The translations under genes and the position numbers were made by a program. DNA of 64,000 bases from an uncultured delta proteobacterium (GTDB lineage: Bacteria; Desulfobacterota; Binatia; Binatales; Binataceae), in assembly GCA_963724765.1 (NCBI GenBank), contig CAVRVY010000003.1, positions 192,001 through 256,000 on the forward strand, read 5' to 3'. The notes beneath the pieces are model-generated. The model was not told where the DNA came from and ran no database searches. It was given only the letters and a program-made list of their open reading frames with translations. Positions 2,902 to 28,220 of the stretch are shown here, one piece after another (position 1 is the first letter of the stretch; every line of letters starts with the position of its first letter).

Positions 2902-3723
2902 ATGAGCAACAACGAATCGATCAAGGAGGCAGTCCGCGAGAACTATGCGCGCGCGGCGCTGCGGGTCGTCAATAACGAAAGTACTTCATGCAGCGGGACG
3001 GCGGCTCCCGCGGGAAATCCGATCACCTCGAATTTGTACGCTGACGGCGAAACCGGGTCTCTTCCGAAGGAAGCGATCGCGGCGTCATTGGGATGCGGCA
3101 ATCCAACTGCGCTAGCCGAGCTTAGGCCGGGCGAGACAGTGCTCGACCTCGGCTCCGGCGGTGGCATCGACGTATTGCTCTCCGCGCGCCGCGTGGGGCC
3201 GGCAGGCAAAGCTTACGGTCTCGACATGACCGACGAGATGCTTGCCCTGGCGCGCGAGAACCAGCGCAAGGCGGGGGCGCAAAACGTCGAGTTTCTGAAG
3301 GGCGAGATCGAAAACATCCCGTTGCCCGACAACTCAGTCGACGTGATCATCTCGAATTGCGTGATCAACCTTTCGGGCGACAAAGACCGCGTGCTGACGG
3401 AGGCGTTCCGCGTGTTGCGCCCGGGAGGCCGCTTCGCAGTCTCGGACGTGGTGGTGCGTGGCGAGGTCCCGGCCCAGATCCGTCGCAACGTTGAGTTATG
3501 GATCGGATGCGTCGCCGGGGCGCTGGAGGAATCCGAGTATCGGGCGAAATTGAGCGGCGCTGGATTCGCGGAGGTCGAGGTCGAGCCGACCCGCATCTAC
3601 CGCGCGGAGGACGCGAAGGAGTTTTTCGCCCAAGCGAATCTCGACATCGAAAAAATCGCGCCGCTGGTCGAGGGCAAGTTCATGAGCGCCTTCGTCCGCG
3701 CGCGCAAACCAATCGACGATTAA
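2902..3723 (+). CDS. arsM: arsenite S-adenosylmethionine methyltransferase
   Basis: SLGCGNP, VLDLGSGGGID SAM motif, IISNCVINLS, LWIGCVAGAL conserved cysteines. Confidence 0.93.
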   Translation: MSNNESIKEAVRENYARAALRVVNNESTSCSGTAAPAGNPITSNLYADGETGSLPKEAIAASLGCGNPTALAELRPGETVLDLGSGGGIDVLLSARRVGPAGKAYGLDMTDEMLALARENQRKAGAQNVEFLKGEIENIPLPDNSVDVIISNCVINLSGDKDRVLTEAFRVLRPGGRFAVSDVVVRGEVPAQIRRNVELWIGCVAGALEESEYRAKLSGAGFAEVEVEPTRIYRAEDAKEFFAQANLDIEKIAPLVEGKFMSAFVRARKPIDD

Positions 3724-4450
3724 CGAATCGAACGCCACGGGCATCCGAGGGCCGCAGACTGACAGGAGACAGGGCGCGACAGCCTCACCCGCCAACGGAA
3801 TTTCCAATGATATACCAATTTCGGTCGGCTTCAGCTGTACGCGTTAGATTAAACCCGATTGTGCTGAACCGAGTTCGTTGGCCAAGCCCAGGCGGCGGCA
3901 CCGGATCGCCGCGGCGTGCAGAACGGACGGCATTGGGTGGGCAGGCAAATCGAGCTCGGTTATGGCCGCGATCACTCCGCTGCGACCACTCAGAATCCGC
4001 ACGGCCGCCCGTGCTACGGCCGCGCGCCAGTTCGAACGCCGGCAAATGGCAGCCCCCGACTGCCGCTCTTCGGTTCCACCAGTCAGATATCTTGAGACGT
4101 AATAGCGATAGCGGCGTTCGCCTTTGACCGCGTTACTCGGCGTCAGACCTGACCGCGCTCGTCGAACAGCTTCCCGATGAGCGCGCTCGACTCGACCCCA
4201 CGGCTTCGACTCTCATGACGAAGGGCCTTTCCGGCCAGCTTCGCACGGGTCTGGAGCTCTCGAATTTCGAACGTCGAAATAGCCTTGTGCGAATTCCGCG
4301 AATCATTACTTTGTTACTTTGCTCCCTTTTTGCTCGGCTGAGACCGTAAACCCGAGCGCGCCCCATAACTCTCTTCGGCGGTGGTCAGGAGTAAGGAAAT
4401 GGGTGTTTAAACGATATATCAGAGGGTTTCGGATTTGATGACCGAGAGCG

Positions 4451-18853: not shown

Positions 18854-20088
18854 TCACGCTTTACTCGCTATCTCTTCTGGGGACCCAACTGTCAACAACT
18901 TGACCAATTTATCCATAGCTGCAAATACGATCTCGACGCTGTAACCAGCCAAGAAAGCTAGAGCGACTGAGGATATGGACTTCGATTGTAAAAACCAAAC
19001 AACGGCCACTCCAGTTAAAGCGCCGATAATGACTCTCAGGTGGTAGCCATAGCTGGTCGATGCCGTATAAGTTTTCTGCTGAATCTCTAAATTTAGGCTG
19101 CGTAAGATGTACACTAGGGTACCAAGCAGCCCATAAAGAAATGGAAGTACAAATTGTTGAAGTGCCTGTAGCGCAAATGAAGCCTGGACTTTCATTTTCG
19201 CTATGACAACTGTCCTGCGGCCGTCAAACCAACCAGCCGGACCTCTTCTGGACCGCCCTCGCTTTTCGCACCTGGAACCGTCTCTGTTCGGAACAGGAGC
19301 TTTTCATCCTGTTCCTGTTCCTCAACTGACATTCGCCAGGGTGTTATCAGGTATCGCCAAACATGTGTCCAGCCCCGCAACGTGACATAATACCCCGCAA
19401 GAATGGCCACGTGGTCATAGAATCTCTGTCTCAGTTGAAACATCTCGCTCGGCGTCGGAGTGGGTGCAACTAGAGACTCACTTGACCCAGTCTGCTCGTT
19501 TGGGGACTCAGTCGCCTTGCTTACGTCTGGCTGGCTCTTAAAAGGTGCTTCAGCTGCCATTCTCGCTGTATTATCGTTCGAGCCCGTTAAATTTTCACCA
19601 GTTTTAAACCCATATAACTGAGCTACATAGCTTGCCAATTGGTACTGTGTCTGGTCGATGGACTGAGTTATGTCATGACCGATTAGCCAATAGATTTGTG
19701 CCGCCACAAGCAAGAGGAATGTGATGGCTGTAAGTGTCGTGTATCTTCTAATAGCGCGGCGCGCTAGGGATGCACCAAACCACCTATCTGGTATCTCTGT
19801 TATTGCTTTCAGGCTCTCGACCGTTACAGGCTTTGCTAGGCTGCAAAGTTTCGCATAGATGACCCAAAAAGCAGCTTCCTCAGTTGGGTCCAAGTCTGTG
19901 CCAGCGGTTATCTTTTCCTCAATGCCGATGAGAGAAGAGACTTCTGTCTGGTCAACGTTAAGACCCACCTTCACCGCGTGGGTCAACAACAACATGGCGT
20001 CATCAATTTCAGTTTGCGCGCTAGGATGGTGTTGAGCTGTGGATGGTGGAAGCTTTTTATGAGCTTCTTGGGCAGCGTCGTGTTTCAT
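18854..20088 (-). pseudogene. multi-TM hypothetical protein split by a frameshift (19201-20088 and 18854-19195)
   Basis: The two ORFs are 5 nt apart in different frames. The C-terminal part has LPFLYGLLG...RVIIGALTG...LAFLAGYSVE TM motifs and stays open upstream of its ATG. Confidence 0.6.
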
Positions 20089-20744
20089 TTCGTTTTACCT
20101 ATGCCCACGAGCCTGATTCGGTGCTTGGATTCTTAACCGGAATTTCCTTTTTAAATCCTGATTCAGACTCACACCAAGACTGTTTGGTTTGCAAACGCAA
20201 AGATCAAGCCGGGTTTTGAGCGCGAAGGGCCTTCCACCGCGCCGCAACAGACCGGTTTTGCCTCGTGTTGACATAAGATCCCGAAACCGCCGCTTCTCCG
20301 ACCGAATTCTCAGACACTTCCGCCTGCGCCCCAGCATCGTCACCGAAATTTGCTCCGCCCTGTGCTCGCCTTATCCCGCCGGCGACGGCAGCGCCGCGAT
20401 CTTCCGCAGCATGCCGGCAAACAGCCGCCGGGTCAGATGTCCCTCGGCCAACAGCAACCAGTAGTAGCGCGCATGTTGGATGAGCCGTCCGCCGGTCTTC
20501 ACCAACCGCTGCTGCAAGCTGGTCAGCGACCACTTCCCGATCGGCGCGGGCAGCGCCAGCCGCCGCCACAAATTCCCCAGGTTATAGGCGATGACGCTCA
20601 GCCACAGTCGCACCTCGTTGGCGCGGAAGCGCTGGCAGGAAAGCCGCGTCATCTTCACTGCTTGCTTGCCTTCCTTGATCCATTGCTCCGCAGTGCCGCG
20701 TTTGTTGTAGAAGCGCACCACCGTCCGGCTTGAAGTCCCAAGAT

Positions 20745-22171
20745 TGATGGGATGGACTGCTCCCCACTTGGACGCCAGCCCAGTGGGCCACGATGGTACG
20801 TTTGACTATCAGCAACCAATGCGAGGAGGGTCAGCGATGAAAGTTACAACGTTAGGAATTGATCTAGCAAAGAACGTGTTCCGGGTGCATGGCTGCGATG
20901 CGAGCGGCAAGGTGGTAGTGAGCAAATCGCTTACGCGGCGACAGCTTCAGGTATTGGTTGCCAACCTACCGCCCTGCTTGGTCGGGATGGAGGCGTGTGC
21001 TACGGCGCGCTACTGGGCGCGAGAAATTCAAAAGCACGGCCACGAGGTGCGGTTGATGGCGCCCCAGTTCGTGCGTCCCTATGTAAAGGCCAACAAGAAC
21101 GACACCCGCGATGCCGAGGCTATCTGCGAAGCGGTGCGGCGGCCGACCATGCGTTTCGTCGCGGTGAAAAGCCCGGCGCAGCAGGACGTGCAGGCGCTGC
21201 ATCGGGTTCGTCAACAGCTGGTCAAGGAGTTGACGGCACTGAGCAATCAAGTGCGCGGCCTGCTCGCCGAGTATGGGTTGGCAATTCCGTTGGGTTTCGC
21301 GGCGCTGCGGCGCGCGCTGCCTAGGATTGTCGCAGAGGACGACAACGGGCTCAGCGGTTTGATGCGCGAATTGGTACTCGACCTCAGAGAACGGTTCGAC
21401 CACACGGAGCAGCGGCTGCGCCGCTACAACCAGCAGATCATTCAACTGCTCCACCATGATGAGCGCTGCCAGCGCCTGGCTGAAGTGCCGGGGGTAGGTC
21501 CGCTGACCGCCACAGCAGTGGTCGCGGCCGTTGGTAATGCCCGGGACTTCAGAAGTGGGCGCGAGCTGGCTGCCTACCTTGGGTTGGTTCCACGCCACCG
21601 CGCCAGCGGTGGGCCGTACTGTTATGCTCGGCATCAGCAAGCGGGGTGATAGCTATCTGCGAACCCTTTTGGTCAATGGCGCACGTGCCGCAATGCGTAA
21701 CGTCGGGCGCCGCCGGGATCCGCGCAGCGTCTGGGCCAGTCGTCTCAAACTACGTCGGGGGGCCAATGTTGCAACGGTGGCGCTGGCCAACAAGAACGCT
21801 CGCGTGATGTGGGCATTATTGACTCGAGGTGAGAACTACCGCGCCGTACCCCACCCCGCGCGGATTCCGCAACGCGGCTGACGCGCGGAGAAAATCAGAA
21901 CCAGGAAGTTAACCTACCAAGAGTTGCGCAAGCTGTGAACGAAACGGTGATGGCGAACCGGTCGGACCGGCACTTTCTCAAACCTAGCCGTGACCAAGGC
22001 CTTCGAGGCCGCAAAATTGATAAGGCGAAAGTGCGCGGATTTCCATCAGGGCCCGGGGCAATAGCAACAAAGTGCAGCCCCACTCCAGAGAGGCCGAATA
22101 TATGGTTGCAACCGGATCATCGCTCAATCGAATCGCATCCACAGCTTCGCACCGGGGGAGCGGTCCATATA
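20745..22171 (+). mobile_element. IS110 family, IS1111 group element (transposase 20837-21881, one frameshift near 21612)
   Basis: GIDLAK, MEAC, KND.RDA, SGG motifs; subterminal IRs ATGGACTGCTCCCC / GGGGAGCGGTCCAT, 7 and 3 nt from the ends; long 3' non-coding region. Confidence 0.93.
21900..22150 (+). ncRNA. bridge/seek RNA of the IS1111 element (boundaries approximate)
   Basis: Stem GCACTTTC/GAAAGTGC encloses CGTGACCAA and CAAAATTG (target guides); CCATCA and ATATATG match the circle junction. Confidence 0.8.
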
Positions 22172-23270
22172 TGGTCACGATGAACCCCACGCGGGGGAAC
22201 AATTCCCCGCAATGGAATTCGACCTTCGCCACCACCCGCCGGGTCATCGTCCAACTCGCCGCCTGGTAAAGAAAACTCTTGTACCGCACCACCGGCTTGT
22301 AGCTTGGCCGTCCCGCTGGCCGGGTCAACAACTCCGTAATGTTCCGCTGCAGATGGTCGTTGGCAGGAATACGAATGGCATACTTCACCGTCCGTTCTTC
22401 CAGCGCCTCGTAGAGCTCCGGCTTGGCAAAGGCGGCGTCGCCACGGAAGGTCACCTCTTTGCCCTGCGCCTGCTGCCGATCGATCTCGGGTAGCAGCAGT
22501 TCCTCCCAACCCTCGGCGCTGTGGACGTTGCCGGGGCGCAGCTTCGCCGCTAGGCAGTCGCCTTCGCGATTGAACAGCAGCAAGGGATGATAACAGGTGG
22601 ACTCGAAGTGGCCGTTGTACGCACTGTGCTCCTGCCGACCATGGACCGGGATTTCCGTGCTGTCCATATCAAGCACTACCCGCCGCGGTGAAGCGATGGC
22701 CTCTGCCTTGGCGAGCAACTCCCGGTTGAGCGCGGCCAGCCCGGCAAGGTTTTCTCCTTGCGTCAGCACTTGGGTCTCGAATGATTGCAAGCGCGAGGTC
22801 AAGGCCGCGCCCCGCTCCCAGATCTTCCGCGAGCCGATGAGCCGGAAGGTCGGATCCTGGGACAGCCGCTCGGCGTCGTTGACATCCTCATACCCCGCCA
22901 AGCGGCTATAGATCGACTGCCGCAGCAGGTCCGCCAAAGGCAATTGGATATTCTTGCCGCGGCGGAAATCGCTCAAGTGCCGGTCCACGAGTGCGCTCAA
23001 GCCGAGATGTTCGTCCAGCTCGCGCACCAGAACTAATCCACCATCCGAGGTCACCCGTGAACCTTGGAAGTCCACCCTCAAGGAGCCGTTGAACGAGAGC
23101 TGAAAGGGCCGTCGTTGCGTCTCACCCACTGCCTCGCCACCTCCACACCACCCCGATCGCATCCAAACCCACGTCCATCAGCGCGTTTGTCGCATTTTAT
23201 CAAATTGCTAGCTCACTGAGAAAATGGGAATGTGGGTTAAAAAAAGAGGAACCCTCCTGGCCGCGTTCCT

Positions 23271-24146
23271 CTATTTGCATCCAATCGTACACGTAGACGG
23301 GGGAGGGTGAGACACCATAACGATTTCTGGCGCTAGTATAAAATTCAAAGTACCGTCCGCCCCTACGCTGATATCATACAGAATATACCAAGCTTTTTGG
23401 CTCGGTGGACAATCCGTGTAGTATCTCTGAATATCAAGTTGCTGAATGCCTGCGCTGATTCGAAGTCTCCCACCGCATCCTCCATAAGGGCCATTGTCCA
23501 CATCGAAGTAGACCGCGGCCGTACTGCCAGGCACCAGCTTGTAGGTTACATCGACCCATCCTGAATCCTCACCAAACTTTAAGGCGGGAAATAGAGCCAC
23601 GCCGTTTAATTTTACATTGGCATAGTCGTCGATATCGGACGCTCGCACCAGGAGTCTTACTCGTCTTCCTAGTAGACCTTTTGCAATTTCGGATTCCGGT
23701 AGCGCTTCGGAACTCGCGATTGCCTCTAGTTGAGGTCGCCCCGAAACTTTCATGCGCTCAAGAACACGGAGTGCTGATTGTCCTACGACGTTAGGACCGT
23801 AATTGTTAGGATAGGCAAAGCGGAGCGCAATTGGTACCGCATAACTAGGCTCCAGCGCAATATCCAGATCATCGATCAGGTTGGCTCGATCATGTTCAGT
23901 AGTTGTTGAAATGATTTTGTTGAGATACGCGGCACTCAGTTGACGTTCGGACACGCTAAGTTGCGCCTTAGCAACGCTGTCGGCGGCCGCCATCTGAGCT
24001 TTCGTTATTTTCCGCTGGGCGCGATTGATCAGCACAGTGACTAGAACTCCTAACGCCGCGATGAGCACGCCGGAGGTCAGTTGTCCGATAACACCGAGCT
24101 TATCCCAAGTATCCTTGGGCTCTCTATTCTTGGCGGAAATGTACAT
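23271..24146 (-). CDS. hypothetical protein with N-terminal TM, coiled coil and beta-rich C-terminal domain
   Basis: 291-aa ORF; WDKLGVIGQLTSGVLIAALGVLVTVLI TM segment. Confidence 0.65.
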   Translation of the reverse strand: MYISAKNREPKDTWDKLGVIGQLTSGVLIAALGVLVTVLINRAQRKITKAQMAAADSVAKAQLSVSERQLSAAYLNKIISTTTEHDRANLIDDLDIALEPSYAVPIALRFAYPNNYGPNVVGQSALRVLERMKVSGRPQLEAIASSEALPESEIAKGLLGRRVRLLVRASDIDDYANVKLNGVALFPALKFGEDSGWVDVTYKLVPGSTAAVYFDVDNGPYGGCGGRLRISAGIQQLDIQRYYTDCPPSQKAWYILYDISVGADGTLNFILAPEIVMVSHPPPSTCTIGCK

Positions 24147-24715: not shown

Positions 24716-25616
24716 TGTATCTGCAAATCGGCGTATGAAGGTAGTAGCGGGCGCGGCAGACCGTTAAAACCTGGGTCGGCAGAGACCGTGGTTTAGCCAG
24801 GATCGTCGCGTCCGCTAAATCAAGCGTCCACAGCTCGAACAGTTGACGGGGCCGCGCGCAAGGCACGAGCCCGCATGTACAAGGACGGGTTAGGACGCGG
24901 AGTGAGGAGCAGCGGGGTGATGGGCGAAGAGGTGTATGTTGGGATCGATGTAAGCAAGACCGAGCTAGTGGTGGCGGTGCGCCCCAGCGGACAGAGCTTC
25001 ACGCTGGCCTACGATCGGGTGGGGCTGAAGCACTTGGTGGGTCGTTTGGGCAAACTGCAGCCCAAGCTGGTGGTGGTGGAAGCGACTGGCGGATTGCAAC
25101 GGCAGGTGGCGGCGGCGCTGTGGACCGCGGGGGTCGCGGTGGCAGCCGTCAATCCGAGCTGGGTACGGAGCTACGCGCGGGGTAGCGGACTATTGGCGAA
25201 GACCGACCGCATCGATGCCAAGCTACTCGCACTGTTTGCGCAACGCGAGCAACCCGCGCCGCGGCCGCCGCTGGATGCGGAGACCCAGGCGCTGCAGGAA
25301 TTGGCCACCCGGCGCGACCAATTGCTCGAGATGCGCGTGGCGGAGCAACAGCGGCTGCAGCGCGCAGGTCCGTAAAGAGTTGCGCCACCATATCGCTTAC
25401 CTAGAGGGCCGGATCACAGAGATCGACGATGACATCGATAAGTCCGTGCGGCGCTCCGCGGCCTGGCGGCGCAAGAGCGAGGTGCTCCGCAGCTTTCCGG
25501 GCGTGGGCAAGGTGTTCTGCGCCACGGTGCTGTCCAAGTTGCCGGAACTGGGCACGCTCAGCGGTAAAGCCGCCGCAGCCCTGGTCGGAATCGCTCCGTT
25601 CCCCGATGATAGCGGC
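24716..25616 (+). mobile_element. IS110-group element, truncated (5' non-coding region plus transposase from ATG 24920, frameshifted)
   Basis: YVGIDVSK, VEATG, AKTDRIDA, PGVG, PELG, PFPDDSG; begins CT-TGTAT directly after an IS481-like terminal repeat. Confidence 0.9.
24740..24900 (+). ncRNA. bridge RNA of the IS110 element (second copy on the minus strand, about 25983-26143)
   Basis: Stem TAGCGGGCGCGGC/GTCGCGTCCGCTA encloses TTAAAACCT and GGTTTAG; TACAAG is complementary to the element end CTTGTA. Confidence 0.78.
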
Positions 25617-26241
25617 GGCCGCGGCGCGGGTTGCTCGCGTTGCGCAAACAGTGCGAGTAGCTTGGCATCGATGCGGTCGGTCTTCGCCAATAGTCCGCTA
25701 CCCCGCGCGTAGCTCCGTACCCAGCTCGGATTGACGGCTGCCACCGCGACCCCCGCGGTCCACAGCGCCGCCGCCACCTGCCGTTGCAATCCGCCAGTCG
25801 CTTCCACCACCACCAGCTTGGGCTGCAGTTTGCCCAAACGACCCACCAAGTGCTTCAGCCCCACCCGATCGTAGGCCAGCGTGAAGCTCTGTCCGCTGGG
25901 GCGCACCGCCACCACTAGCTCGGTCTTGCTTACATCGATCCCAACATACACCTCTTCGCCCATCACCCCGCTGCTCCTCACTCCGCGTCCTAACCCGTCC
26001 TTGTACATGCGGGCTCGTGCCTTGCGCGCGGCCCCGTCAACTGTTCGAGCTGTGGACGCTTGATTTAGCGGACGCGACGATCCTGGCTAAACCACGGTCT
26101 CTGCCGACCCAGGTTTTAACGGTCTGCCGCGCCCGCTACTACCTTCATACGCCGATTTGCAGATACAAGGTTTTGACTAAGCACAGGGTATTTGACGTTG
26201 TGCTGATCCGCGATGTACATGTGAACAAAAGGAGACCATCG

Positions 26242-26823: not shown

Positions 26824-28220
26824 ATGAGCGAGCTAGCAATTGCCACCATGTCCGGGTCTTTCGCTGCCGTTCCAGAGTCGGCTGTCAGCGAGTACCGGGC
26901 GGCTCTGCGTGGAGCTGTTCTGTCGGCTGCGGACCCTGGCTATGACGATGCCCGCAAAATCTGGAACGGAATGACAAAAAAGCGGCCGGCGCTCATAGCT
27001 CAATGCCGGGGCACCGCCGACGTCATGACATCGATCAAGTTTGCAAAGGCCCACGGCCTTCTCGTGGCAGTCAAAGGCGGCGGCCATAGCATCGCAGGTC
27101 ATTCGTGTGCGAAGGCGGGCTCATGATCGACCTCTCACGTATGAATAGCGTGCTCGTAGATCGAGGCCGTCGCGTCGCACGCGCAGCCGGTGGAGCCAAA
27201 TGGCTCGACTTTGACCACGAGACTCAGGCGTTCGGACTGGCAACCACCGGAGGGACGAACTCAGACACGGGCATCGGAGGCCTGACACTTGGCGGCGGAA
27301 TCGGTTGGCTCGCGGGTAAATACGGCCTCACCTGCGACAATCTGCTTTCTGCTGACGTTGTAACGGCAGACGGGATGTTGGTTACGGCCAGCGCAACGGA
27401 GAATTCAGACCTCTTCTGGGGCCTCCGCGGCGGCAGCGGCAACTTCGGCTTAGTGACTTCATTCGAATACCAGCTGCACGAAGTGACTATGGTGCTCGCC
27501 GGACTGGTGATCCACCCATTCGAACGCGCCAGGGAGATGCTCAAGTTCTACAGCGAGTTCTCCAGGGCGATACCGGACGAACTCAACACCGTTGCCGTCC
27601 TCTTGACTCTGCCCGACGGGATGAAAGCAGCGGCGATTGCCGTTTGCTACAACGGTGATCTCGGTGAAGGCGAAAAAGTCCTGCAGCCGTTGCGTGACTT
27701 CGGTCCACCGGCAATGGCTCAACTCGGCCCCATGCCTTACACGGCAGTCCAGACCATGCTCGATCCGTCCTTCCCGGTCGGGCGGCAATACTACTGGAAG
27801 GCCCACCTGATGGGTGAGATATCAGAGCAGGCCATAGACGTCATGGTCCAGTTCTACGCCAAGGTCCCTTCACCCTTCAGTGCTCTGGGGTTTCAGCAAC
27901 TCGGCAACGCTGCCAACCGCGTCTCTCCCGACGCGACAGCGTTCAGCCATCGCGACGCCTTGTACGATTTCCTGATGCTCTCGGGATGGGAAGACCCAGC
28001 AAGCGCGGAAGATAACATTGCCTGGACGAGAACGCTGTACGACACGATGCTGCCGCACCTGCACCGCGGCATCTACGTTAACGGCCTAACCGAAGACACG
28101 GCGCAGCCGACAACGGCAGCCTTCCGGCCCGAGACCTATCAGCGTCTGGCCGCACTGAAGGAACGCTACGACCCCACGAACTTCTTCCGGCTCAACCCGA
28201 ACGTCAAGCCGATGGCCTGA
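26824..28220 (+). pseudogene. FAD-binding oxidoreductase (berberine bridge enzyme-like), frameshift near 27105
   Basis: RPALI, VKGGGHS, GIGGLTLGGG, DLFWGLRGGSGNFG, YDPTNFFRLN. Confidence 0.85.

Follow-up and report, generated by a model that had tools for sequence, protein, structure and literature searches.

A probable RNA-guided IS1111-type insertion sequence with a predicted four-guide RNA inside an IS1380-family transposase gene of an uncultured delta proteobacterium

In a 64,000-nucleotide stretch of DNA from an uncultured delta proteobacterium of the Binataceae (contig CAVRVY010000003.1 of assembly GCA_963724765.1, positions 192,001 to 256,000; the whole stretch is called the window below), we identified an insertion at positions 20745-22171 that divides an IS1380-family transposase gene. 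The inserted DNA is very probably an IS1111-type member of the IS110 family of RNA-guided insertion sequences. It carries a transposase gene in two overlapping frames, with a non-coding region of 290 nt 3' of the stop codon (21882-22171) against only 92 nt 5' of the start, and the 3' region contains a predicted guide RNA with four putative guide segments. The features of the locus, in order of position, are the following.

20371..20744, minus strand: C-terminal part of the IS1380-family transposase gene (PF13701 317-434; NF033539 319-418)
20745..22171, plus strand: very probable IS1111-type insertion sequence, 1427 bp with one copy of the shared TG counted, delimited by the junctions and by empty sites
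20745..20751, plus strand: left terminal extension TGATGGG (7 nt), bases 1-6 complementary to putative donor guide 1
20752..20765, plus strand: left subterminal inverted repeat ATGGACTGCTCCCC, matching the reverse complement of 22155-22168 at 13/14 positions
20837..21649, plus strand: transposase, first frame, with the DEDD/RuvC-like domain and the start of the Tnp domain, ending at a GLVPRHRASGG motif (PF01548, PF02371, NF033542)
21607..21613, plus strand: reading-frame break in the transposase gene, placed by alignment to the protein of locus L009
21614..21881, plus strand: transposase, second frame, C-terminal part (PF02371, NF033542); the open frame begins at 21531 (21531-21881)
21922..22115, plus strand: predicted bridge/seek RNA, 194 nt, with outer helix, 5' hairpin, target-binding loop and donor-binding loop (covariance model R1)
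21971..22033, plus strand: predicted target-binding stem-loop, outer stem 21971-21977 with 22027-22033, inner hairpin 21998-22001 with 22007-22010 (GGCC/GGCC)
21989..21997, plus strand: putative target guide 1, CGTGACCAA, pairing with the top strand of core and right flank; exact reverse complement of TTGGTCACG
22012..22019, plus strand: putative target guide 2, CAAAATTG, in the sense of left flank and core and pairing with the bottom strand; 7/8 match to CAAGATTG
22043..22048, plus strand: putative donor guide 1, CCATCA, complement of left-end bases 1-6 and at the same time the 3' strand of predicted helix 2, whose 5' strand is 21948-21953
22098..22104, plus strand: putative donor guide 2, ATATATG, in the sense of right end and core
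22155..22171, plus strand: right subterminal inverted repeat (22155-22168), then the 3-nt right extension ATA
22172..23162, minus strand: N-terminal 330 codons of the IS1380-family transposase gene, cut by the insertion (PF13701 2-311, 276.6 bits; NF033539 1-313)

The left junction of the insertion reads CCAAGAT-TG-ATGGG, with TG at 20745-20746, and the right junction reads CCATATA-TG-GTCACG, with TG at 22172-22173. Empty sites fix the boundaries of the element and give asymmetric extensions, 7 nt long at the left end and 3 nt at the right. The locus has gained exactly 1427 bp (2-nt ambiguity), which is consistent with the absence of a target duplication. An inverted-repeat search of 20050-23450 recovered neither the ends of an IS1380 element nor the IS1111 subterminal repeats; the latter were missed because they contain no 9-nt exact seed, and they were then compared by hand. 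IS1111 group members usually have subterminal inverted repeats of 11-13 bp, a left extension of 7 (or 6) nt and a right extension of 3 nt (PMC11187229). The traits of the group that we found at this locus are the DEDD transposase, the GL-P----S(T)G motif, the protein size, the repeats, the extensions and the 3' non-coding region. An original prediction, made from the sequence of the window, had proposed an IS1111 element inside an IS1380 transposase gene; profiles, repeats, extensions and junctions all bear this out, and every motif coordinate it gave was correct when the sequence was read again.

Several lines of evidence identify the site as it was before insertion. The two pieces of the IS1380 gene match PF13701 and NF033539 at adjoining profile positions, the N-terminal piece reaching 246.5 bits on NF033539 (cut-off 180). 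Three paralogous IS1380-type copies in the same genome (C1:624k, C2:36k and C1:609k) run ungapped through the site. A relative of the host gene at locus L089, 91% identical, carries the exact rejoined sequence and reads GFIVTNLG there. Of the 80 best host-protein relatives from other genomes, 79 continue through the site without interruption and the remaining one is truncated by the end of its contig. In metagenomic assemblies, two run X5 contigs pass directly from 20744 to 22172, leaving out exactly 1427 bases with two letters ambiguous, and contigs of runs X1, X3 and X5 span the element junctions in the form found in the window. Metagenome contigs were placed at 90% likeness, so the X5 empty-site contigs may derive from another strain or organism. 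The empty site CCAAGAT-TG-GTCACG that had been proposed to rejoin the IS1380 frame is thus confirmed by profile positions, L089, own-genome paralogs and X5 contigs. We saw no contig with a circle junction, and contigs are unreliable for showing such junctions.

The transposase belongs to a well-defined protein family. Its first frame matches PF01548 with 74.8 bits, and PF02371 is split across the two overlapping frames, with profile positions 1-52 in the first and 54-78 in the second. The profile NF033542, 'IS110 family RNA-guided transposase', gives 282 bits (cut-off 140), covering positions 2-268 in the first frame and 271-342 in the second. Both frames align end to end on a 347-aa protein of L009, the closest transposase relative found (71% identity), and the switch between them falls directly after GLVPRHRASGG. 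The motif GL-P----SG is a hallmark of IS1111 transposases, which are about 330-350 aa long (PMC11187229).

The genome holds one full copy of the element and five related 3' regions. A paralogous transposase is intact at C3:109603 (346 aa, about 60% identical), and four partial IS1111-type 3' ends retain the RNA scaffold (L003-L006; C3:17233-17339, C4:1700162-1700321, C1:276078-276270 and C1:654055-654212). The copy at C3:17k is without the inner hairpin of the donor loop and that at C1:276k without the right end. C4:1700k and C3:17k have similar guide-1 sequences and similar right flanks (AGGGAC...). Further upstream of C1:654k lies another right-end-like motif, GGACCATATA. We considered whether the extra RNAs could be RNA-only mini-elements and rejected this, as they follow transposase remnants or are truncated, with no left-end motif within 1700 nt upstream.

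From the six copies in the genome we built a covariance model, R1, of 182 positions and 35 base pairs. In the window it has a single match, at the element (173.2 bits, E 2.4e-46). Among 80 loci encoding relatives of the transposase (47-71% identity, from many bacterial phyla), R1 finds 76 matches in 72, nearly all directly 3' of the transposase gene, and in five of the eight loci without a match the contig ends less than 400 nt beyond the protein match. In 65 distinct sequences, 94.6% of the cells at paired positions can pair, compared with 73.9% in shuffles, and compensatory changes occur at 28 of the 35 pairs; none of 500 shuffles reached the observed values, and sliding the partners by 1-3 columns lowers pairing to 27-43%. 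In the target loop, where GCACTTTC at 21970-21977 faces GAAAGTGC at 22027-22034, all seven outer-stem pairs and all four inner-hairpin pairs show compensatory changes. In the donor loop, CCATCA and ATATATG lie on the two sides, and an inner stem joins 22050-22053 with 22092-22095. The guides were placed within the loops by homology to the family structure. Folded as a single sequence, 21925-22125 is no more stable than shuffles (z = 0.90), and the structure derives from comparative data only.

Most relatives also have a conserved motif, CTTGCAA or CTTGGCAAA, resembling a -35 hexamer and lying about 30 nt before the right subterminal repeat; in the window the same motif reads CTTCGCA (about 22143-22151). 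A promoter created by the joined element ends has been described for IS1111 elements (PMC11187229). At one locus, L055 from a Pseudomonadales metagenome-assembled genome (MAG), three identical RNA copies (3108-3292, 3624-3808 and 4140-4324) follow one transposase gene at a spacing of 516 nt.

The two target guides sit on opposite sides of the target loop. Guide 1, on the 5' side, is an exact 9-nt complement of T+TG+GTCACG, and guide 2 lies on the 3' side. To compare these segments across the family, we set the junctions in relatives without reference to the guides, using the point where the right subterminal repeat ends and the upstream segment that best matches its reverse complement. The 65 distinct RNAs, less 12 with short flanks or an unclear left end and three duplicates, left 50 relatives. 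Guide 1 matches its own right core and flank with a median exact run of 7, compared with 3 when cross-paired, and exceeds the 95th percentile in 38 of the 50; guide 2 matches its own left flank with a median run of 6, again against 3, exceeding that percentile in 34. Within the genome itself, the scaffold is conserved in the six copies and the guide-1 position is different in every one. The guide-1 sequence is the reverse complement of the copy's own right flank in the window, C3:110k, C1:654k and C4:1700k, and more weakly so in C3:17k.

The guides together specify a 14-mer, to which the occupied site has one mismatch. The present genome contains no site with one mismatch or fewer, 26 with two and 278 with three, so that the occupied site was the best available. 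This site count fits RNA guidance and needs no preference for IS1380.

The donor guides follow the ends of the element. Donor guide 2 agrees with the three variable bases of the right end in 49 of the 50 relatives (six kinds of end; cross-pairing 0.29) and with the first core base in all 50. The reverse complement of donor guide 1 agrees with the left-end ATGx in 48 of 50, including 10 of the 11 relatives with a non-consensus base. To judge from this covariation, the positions occupied by the four segments behave like guides throughout the family. The matches of 21989-21997 (exact) and 22012-22019 (7/8) had been read correctly, and the suggested covariation of guides with their targets holds at all four guide positions.

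The core itself varies within the family. At the left junction, 45 of the 50 relatives have A immediately before ATGG, where the guides specify G, and 41 have G at the same core position of the right junction, so in most relatives only one base is common to both junctions. The commonest left/right pairs are TA/TG (23) and CA/CG (11); TG on both sides is found in the window element and in two of the relatives. A mismatched two-base core that resolves equally into both products was considered and is unsupported, as the reciprocal pattern (G left, A right) occurs in 0/50.

As a control, we searched 200,000 random 290-nt windows of the same genome for the four motifs. The 9-mer of target guide 1 occurs in 0.13%, the 7-of-8 match in 8.8%, CCATCA in 10.3% and ATATATG in 0.35%. 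All four occur together in two windows; about three are expected to overlap the element itself, so none of the two is left over outside it.

On the observed anatomy, guide-DNA matches, family covariation, RNA helices and empty site, we consider it highly probable that 20745-22171 is an RNA-guided IS1111-type element with two target guides and two donor guides in a 3' RNA. In the proposed mechanism, CGTGACCAA would read the top strand of the core and right flank and CAAAATTG the bottom strand of the left flank and core, giving a joint 14-nt site, and in the second loop CCATCA and ATATATG would likewise read the junction at which the ends of the excised circle meet, one on each side. By analogy with ISEc11, ISPa11, ISKpn4 and IS621, a complex of transposase and RNA would then join the circle junction with CAAGAT-TG-GTCACG by strand exchange at the shared TG. 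The expected outcome, by the same analogy, would be insertion into the IS1380-family transposase gene without target duplication. The idea of a complete guide/target/donor set in the original prediction is upheld by the family-wide covariation and the empty-site evidence.

Several points weigh against this interpretation. The transposase is split between two frames, and the break immediately follows the catalytic-serine motif (SGG). Target guide 2 has a mismatch, with A at 22015 where the target has G, and its longest exact run is 4, under the family median of 6. The covariation tests rest on junctions set by a motif rule, with 15 RNAs left out (12 and 3), and the alignment behind the pair counts was fitted to R1, which favors the structure of the model. 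Donor guide 1 is predicted by RNAalifold to pair within the RNA, forming helix 2 with TGATGG at 21948-21953. An Rfam search of 20600-22400 (evalue mode) returned no matching family, and a scan of 20600-22300 for sigma-70-like promoters found none; the two terminator-like sites in the latter interval lie on the minus strand and are no more than chance would give. Among the 20 listed sequencing runs that contain the stretch, none is recorded as RNA.

The first of these points bears on whether the element can still move. A transposase in two frames means that the copy in the window is probably not autonomous, and the most likely state of the copy is fixed and non-autonomous, as judged from its sequence. 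The element is therefore probably a dead relic, whose guides record a past insertion and which would be immobile alone and at most mobilized in trans by a related enzyme. The same frameshift is present in contigs of metagenome runs X1 and X4, which come from different studies. The presence of a single copy of the element in the genome, the mismatch in target guide 2 and the four truncated paralogs that retain 3' parts only also point this way. Some observations favor continued activity: one X5 contig is without one base at 21611, so that a single-frame variant may exist, but this contig has four other differences and a depth of 3.7, and the missing base is possibly an assembly error. The genome also encodes the intact paralogous transposase at C3:109603, and use of a seekRNA is reportedly not limited strictly to transposases that are closely related (PMC11187229). 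The relic reading adds to that of an RNA-guided IS1111-type element and does not replace it. The original prediction was right on the element type and its guides and overlooked the frameshift.

Helix 2 raises the question of whether CCATCA is a guide at all. The segment could be a structural strand of the helix only, with the left end recognized otherwise, for example by protein via the subterminal repeat. In keeping with this, helix 2 is paired in 95.8% across the 65 distinct sequences, with compensatory changes at four of its six pairs; the segment is nearly invariant, and its match to the left end is weak when taken alone (the cross-pairing median of 5 equals the self median). Even so, we regard a purely structural role as unlikely. 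The reverse complement of the segment follows the left end in 10 of 11 departures from ATGG, and in L082 and L079 the segment tracks the left end although the 5' strand of helix 2 does not. Its position also mirrors that of target guide 1, as each occupies the 5' side of an internal loop with a closing GGCC stem. We retain CCATCA as a guide because it follows the varying left end even where the 5' strand of the helix does not, and the RNA may also contain an internal donor mimic, TGATGG. The earlier assignment of CCATCA and ATATATG as donor guides therefore stands insofar as the two match both donor sides in nearly all relatives, with the qualification that CCATCA also lies in a predicted helix.

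TGATGG at 21948-21953 has the letters of the element's left end, and its pairing with CCATCA is kept by compensatory changes, for example in L077 and L047. One speculative model, which we think rather improbable, is that in this clade the RNA-borne copy of the left end masks the right-donor guide CCATCA until donor DNA displaces the mimic. If true, a masked donor guide would be an RNA-level switch on donor capture. To our knowledge, no such switch has been described for bridge or seek RNAs.

The location of the element within another insertion sequence invites the alternative that IS1380-family transposase genes are an evolved, preferred target, serving as a safe harbor inside another mobile element. 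The site does lie within a coding stretch (GFIVTN) that is conserved in IS1380 relatives, and the paralog C1:609k reads AAAATT at this site, like target guide 2. The IS1111-type remnant at C1:654k (L003) has a right flank encoding the C-terminal part of an rve_3 integrase core from an IS3-type gene (E 1.2e-11, profile 36-67) and is therefore a second IS1111-type copy of this genome inside another IS gene. Among the 50 relatives, nine have a transposase-type Pfam domain in an open frame beside the junction (IS66, DDE_Tnp_1, HTH_Tnp_1 twice, IS110, rve, IS240, Tn3 and HTH_21/HTH_28); the others adjoin ordinary or unassigned sequence. In L075, the left flank codes for the extreme C-terminal end of a Tn3-family transposase (PF01526, profile positions 310-389 of 389), which recalls IS1111 members that target Tn21-type ends.

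Against such a preference, none of the 80 best IS1380 relatives contains an insertion of this kind, R1 found no RNA in the 13 IS1380 relatives searched, and the guide-perfect 14-mer is present in 0/80, with the occupied site found in L089 only. The other three paralogs in the genome with a readable right junction adjoin catalase-like, AMP-binding and hydrolase-like frames. Pattern scans yielded no further copy of the element: the guide-loop pattern had no match in the genome contigs and none in the metagenome contigs, and a 20-nt right-end pattern had a single match in the metagenome contigs, in the unrelated L169. Insertions within IS copies, being neutral, also tend to be retained, and the observed sample is biased accordingly. 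A preference for IS1380 thus seems quite doubtful, and the proposal of it is unsupported by the relatives surveyed; from the flanks compared here, landing in other mobile elements appears to be common without being the rule.

That the four matches arose by chance, with the site chosen by protein alone, is next to impossible: CCATCA and the 7-of-8 match are indeed common in random windows, but the four motifs co-occur about as often as windows overlap the element itself, and covariation of each guide with its own DNA across a family cannot arise by chance.

An RNA-guided mechanism for this family was published in 2024 (PMC11187229, PMC11208160), and the element described here adds no new principle to what is known. 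It resembles the IS1111 seekRNA elements ISEc11, ISPa11, ISKpn4 and ISPst6 in having a DEDD transposase that is about 340 aa long and contains the GL-P----SG motif, subterminal repeats with 7- and 3-nt extensions, a long 3' non-coding region and no target duplication (PMC11187229). Like IS1111 seekRNAs, the predicted RNA has two overlapping target matches, with the top-strand complement 5' of the bottom-strand match, and a long RNA form of 145-170 nt that includes a shorter target-reading part is a further point of likeness (PMC11187229). Unlike these four elements, the window element has a frameshifted transposase. Its target is an IS1380-type coding stretch, in contrast to the REP, attC or short linear ISEc11 targets of the described elements (PMC11187229).

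Similarities extend to the bridge RNA of IS621, which has two internal loops, for target and donor, each reading one strand on either side of a short core (PMC11208160, PMC11208158), and whose guide positions covary with DNA (PMC11208160). In IS621, however, the RNA lies in the left end, 5' of the gene, with its guides in reverse order, whereas the window RNA is 3'; IS621 has short subterminal repeats and a CT core, with both core bases common to the two junctions, compared with the long repeats and TG core seen here (PMC11208160). Bridge RNAs have been predicted in the right end of 93% of IS1111 elements (PMC11208160). Handshake guides like those of IS621 (PMC11208158) are only weakly represented in the family of the window element. 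In donor guide 2, the base that follows the core is identical to the first base of the right flank in 25 of the 50 relatives (0.28 expected), and at the second base after the core a handshake-like extension gave no signal (16/50, against 0.33).

A specific target inside another mobile element has a precedent within the IS1111 family, since IS4321 and IS5075 reportedly target the terminal repeats of Tn21-family transposons (Partridge and Hall 2003). The window element is similar in this respect. IS4321 and IS5075 differ in having made many independent insertions at one transposon feature, whereas here a single IS1380 insertion is seen and 0/80 relatives carry one.

The IS110-family element ISPpu9 of Pseudomonas putida has an RNA gene, Ssr9, downstream of its transposase, with extra copies of the RNA gene in the genome (PMC12288879). 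Both features recur here, in the RNA 3' of the transposase and the extra RNA copies. In contrast to ISPpu9 and Ssr9 as described in that paper, the extra copies here, which are truncated or follow C-terminal transposase remnants, have the appearance of decayed 3' ends rather than of separate modules.

The element makes a useful test case, in that the element itself, guide RNA, occupied target, empty target and donor ends are all readable from sequence. It contributes a covariance model of 182 positions for an IS1111 clade that Rfam does not cover. Its frameshift and guide mismatch illustrate an element after movement has ceased, and its presence inside another IS is no evidence of a preference for that IS.

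Other remnants of mobile elements lie nearby in the window. Two truncated IS110-family N-terminal fragments face each other at 24875-25375 (plus strand) and 25397-26008 (minus strand), matching PF01548 at positions 1-148 and 1-112, and the R1 search of the window found no RNA of this type in them. They may be the other IS110-family element mentioned in the original prediction. Beyond them, a gene for a FAD_binding_4/BBE oxidase is split over overlapping plus-strand frames at 26824-27126 and 27105-28220 (profile 1-41 and 43-138), making it another frameshifted gene near the IS cluster.

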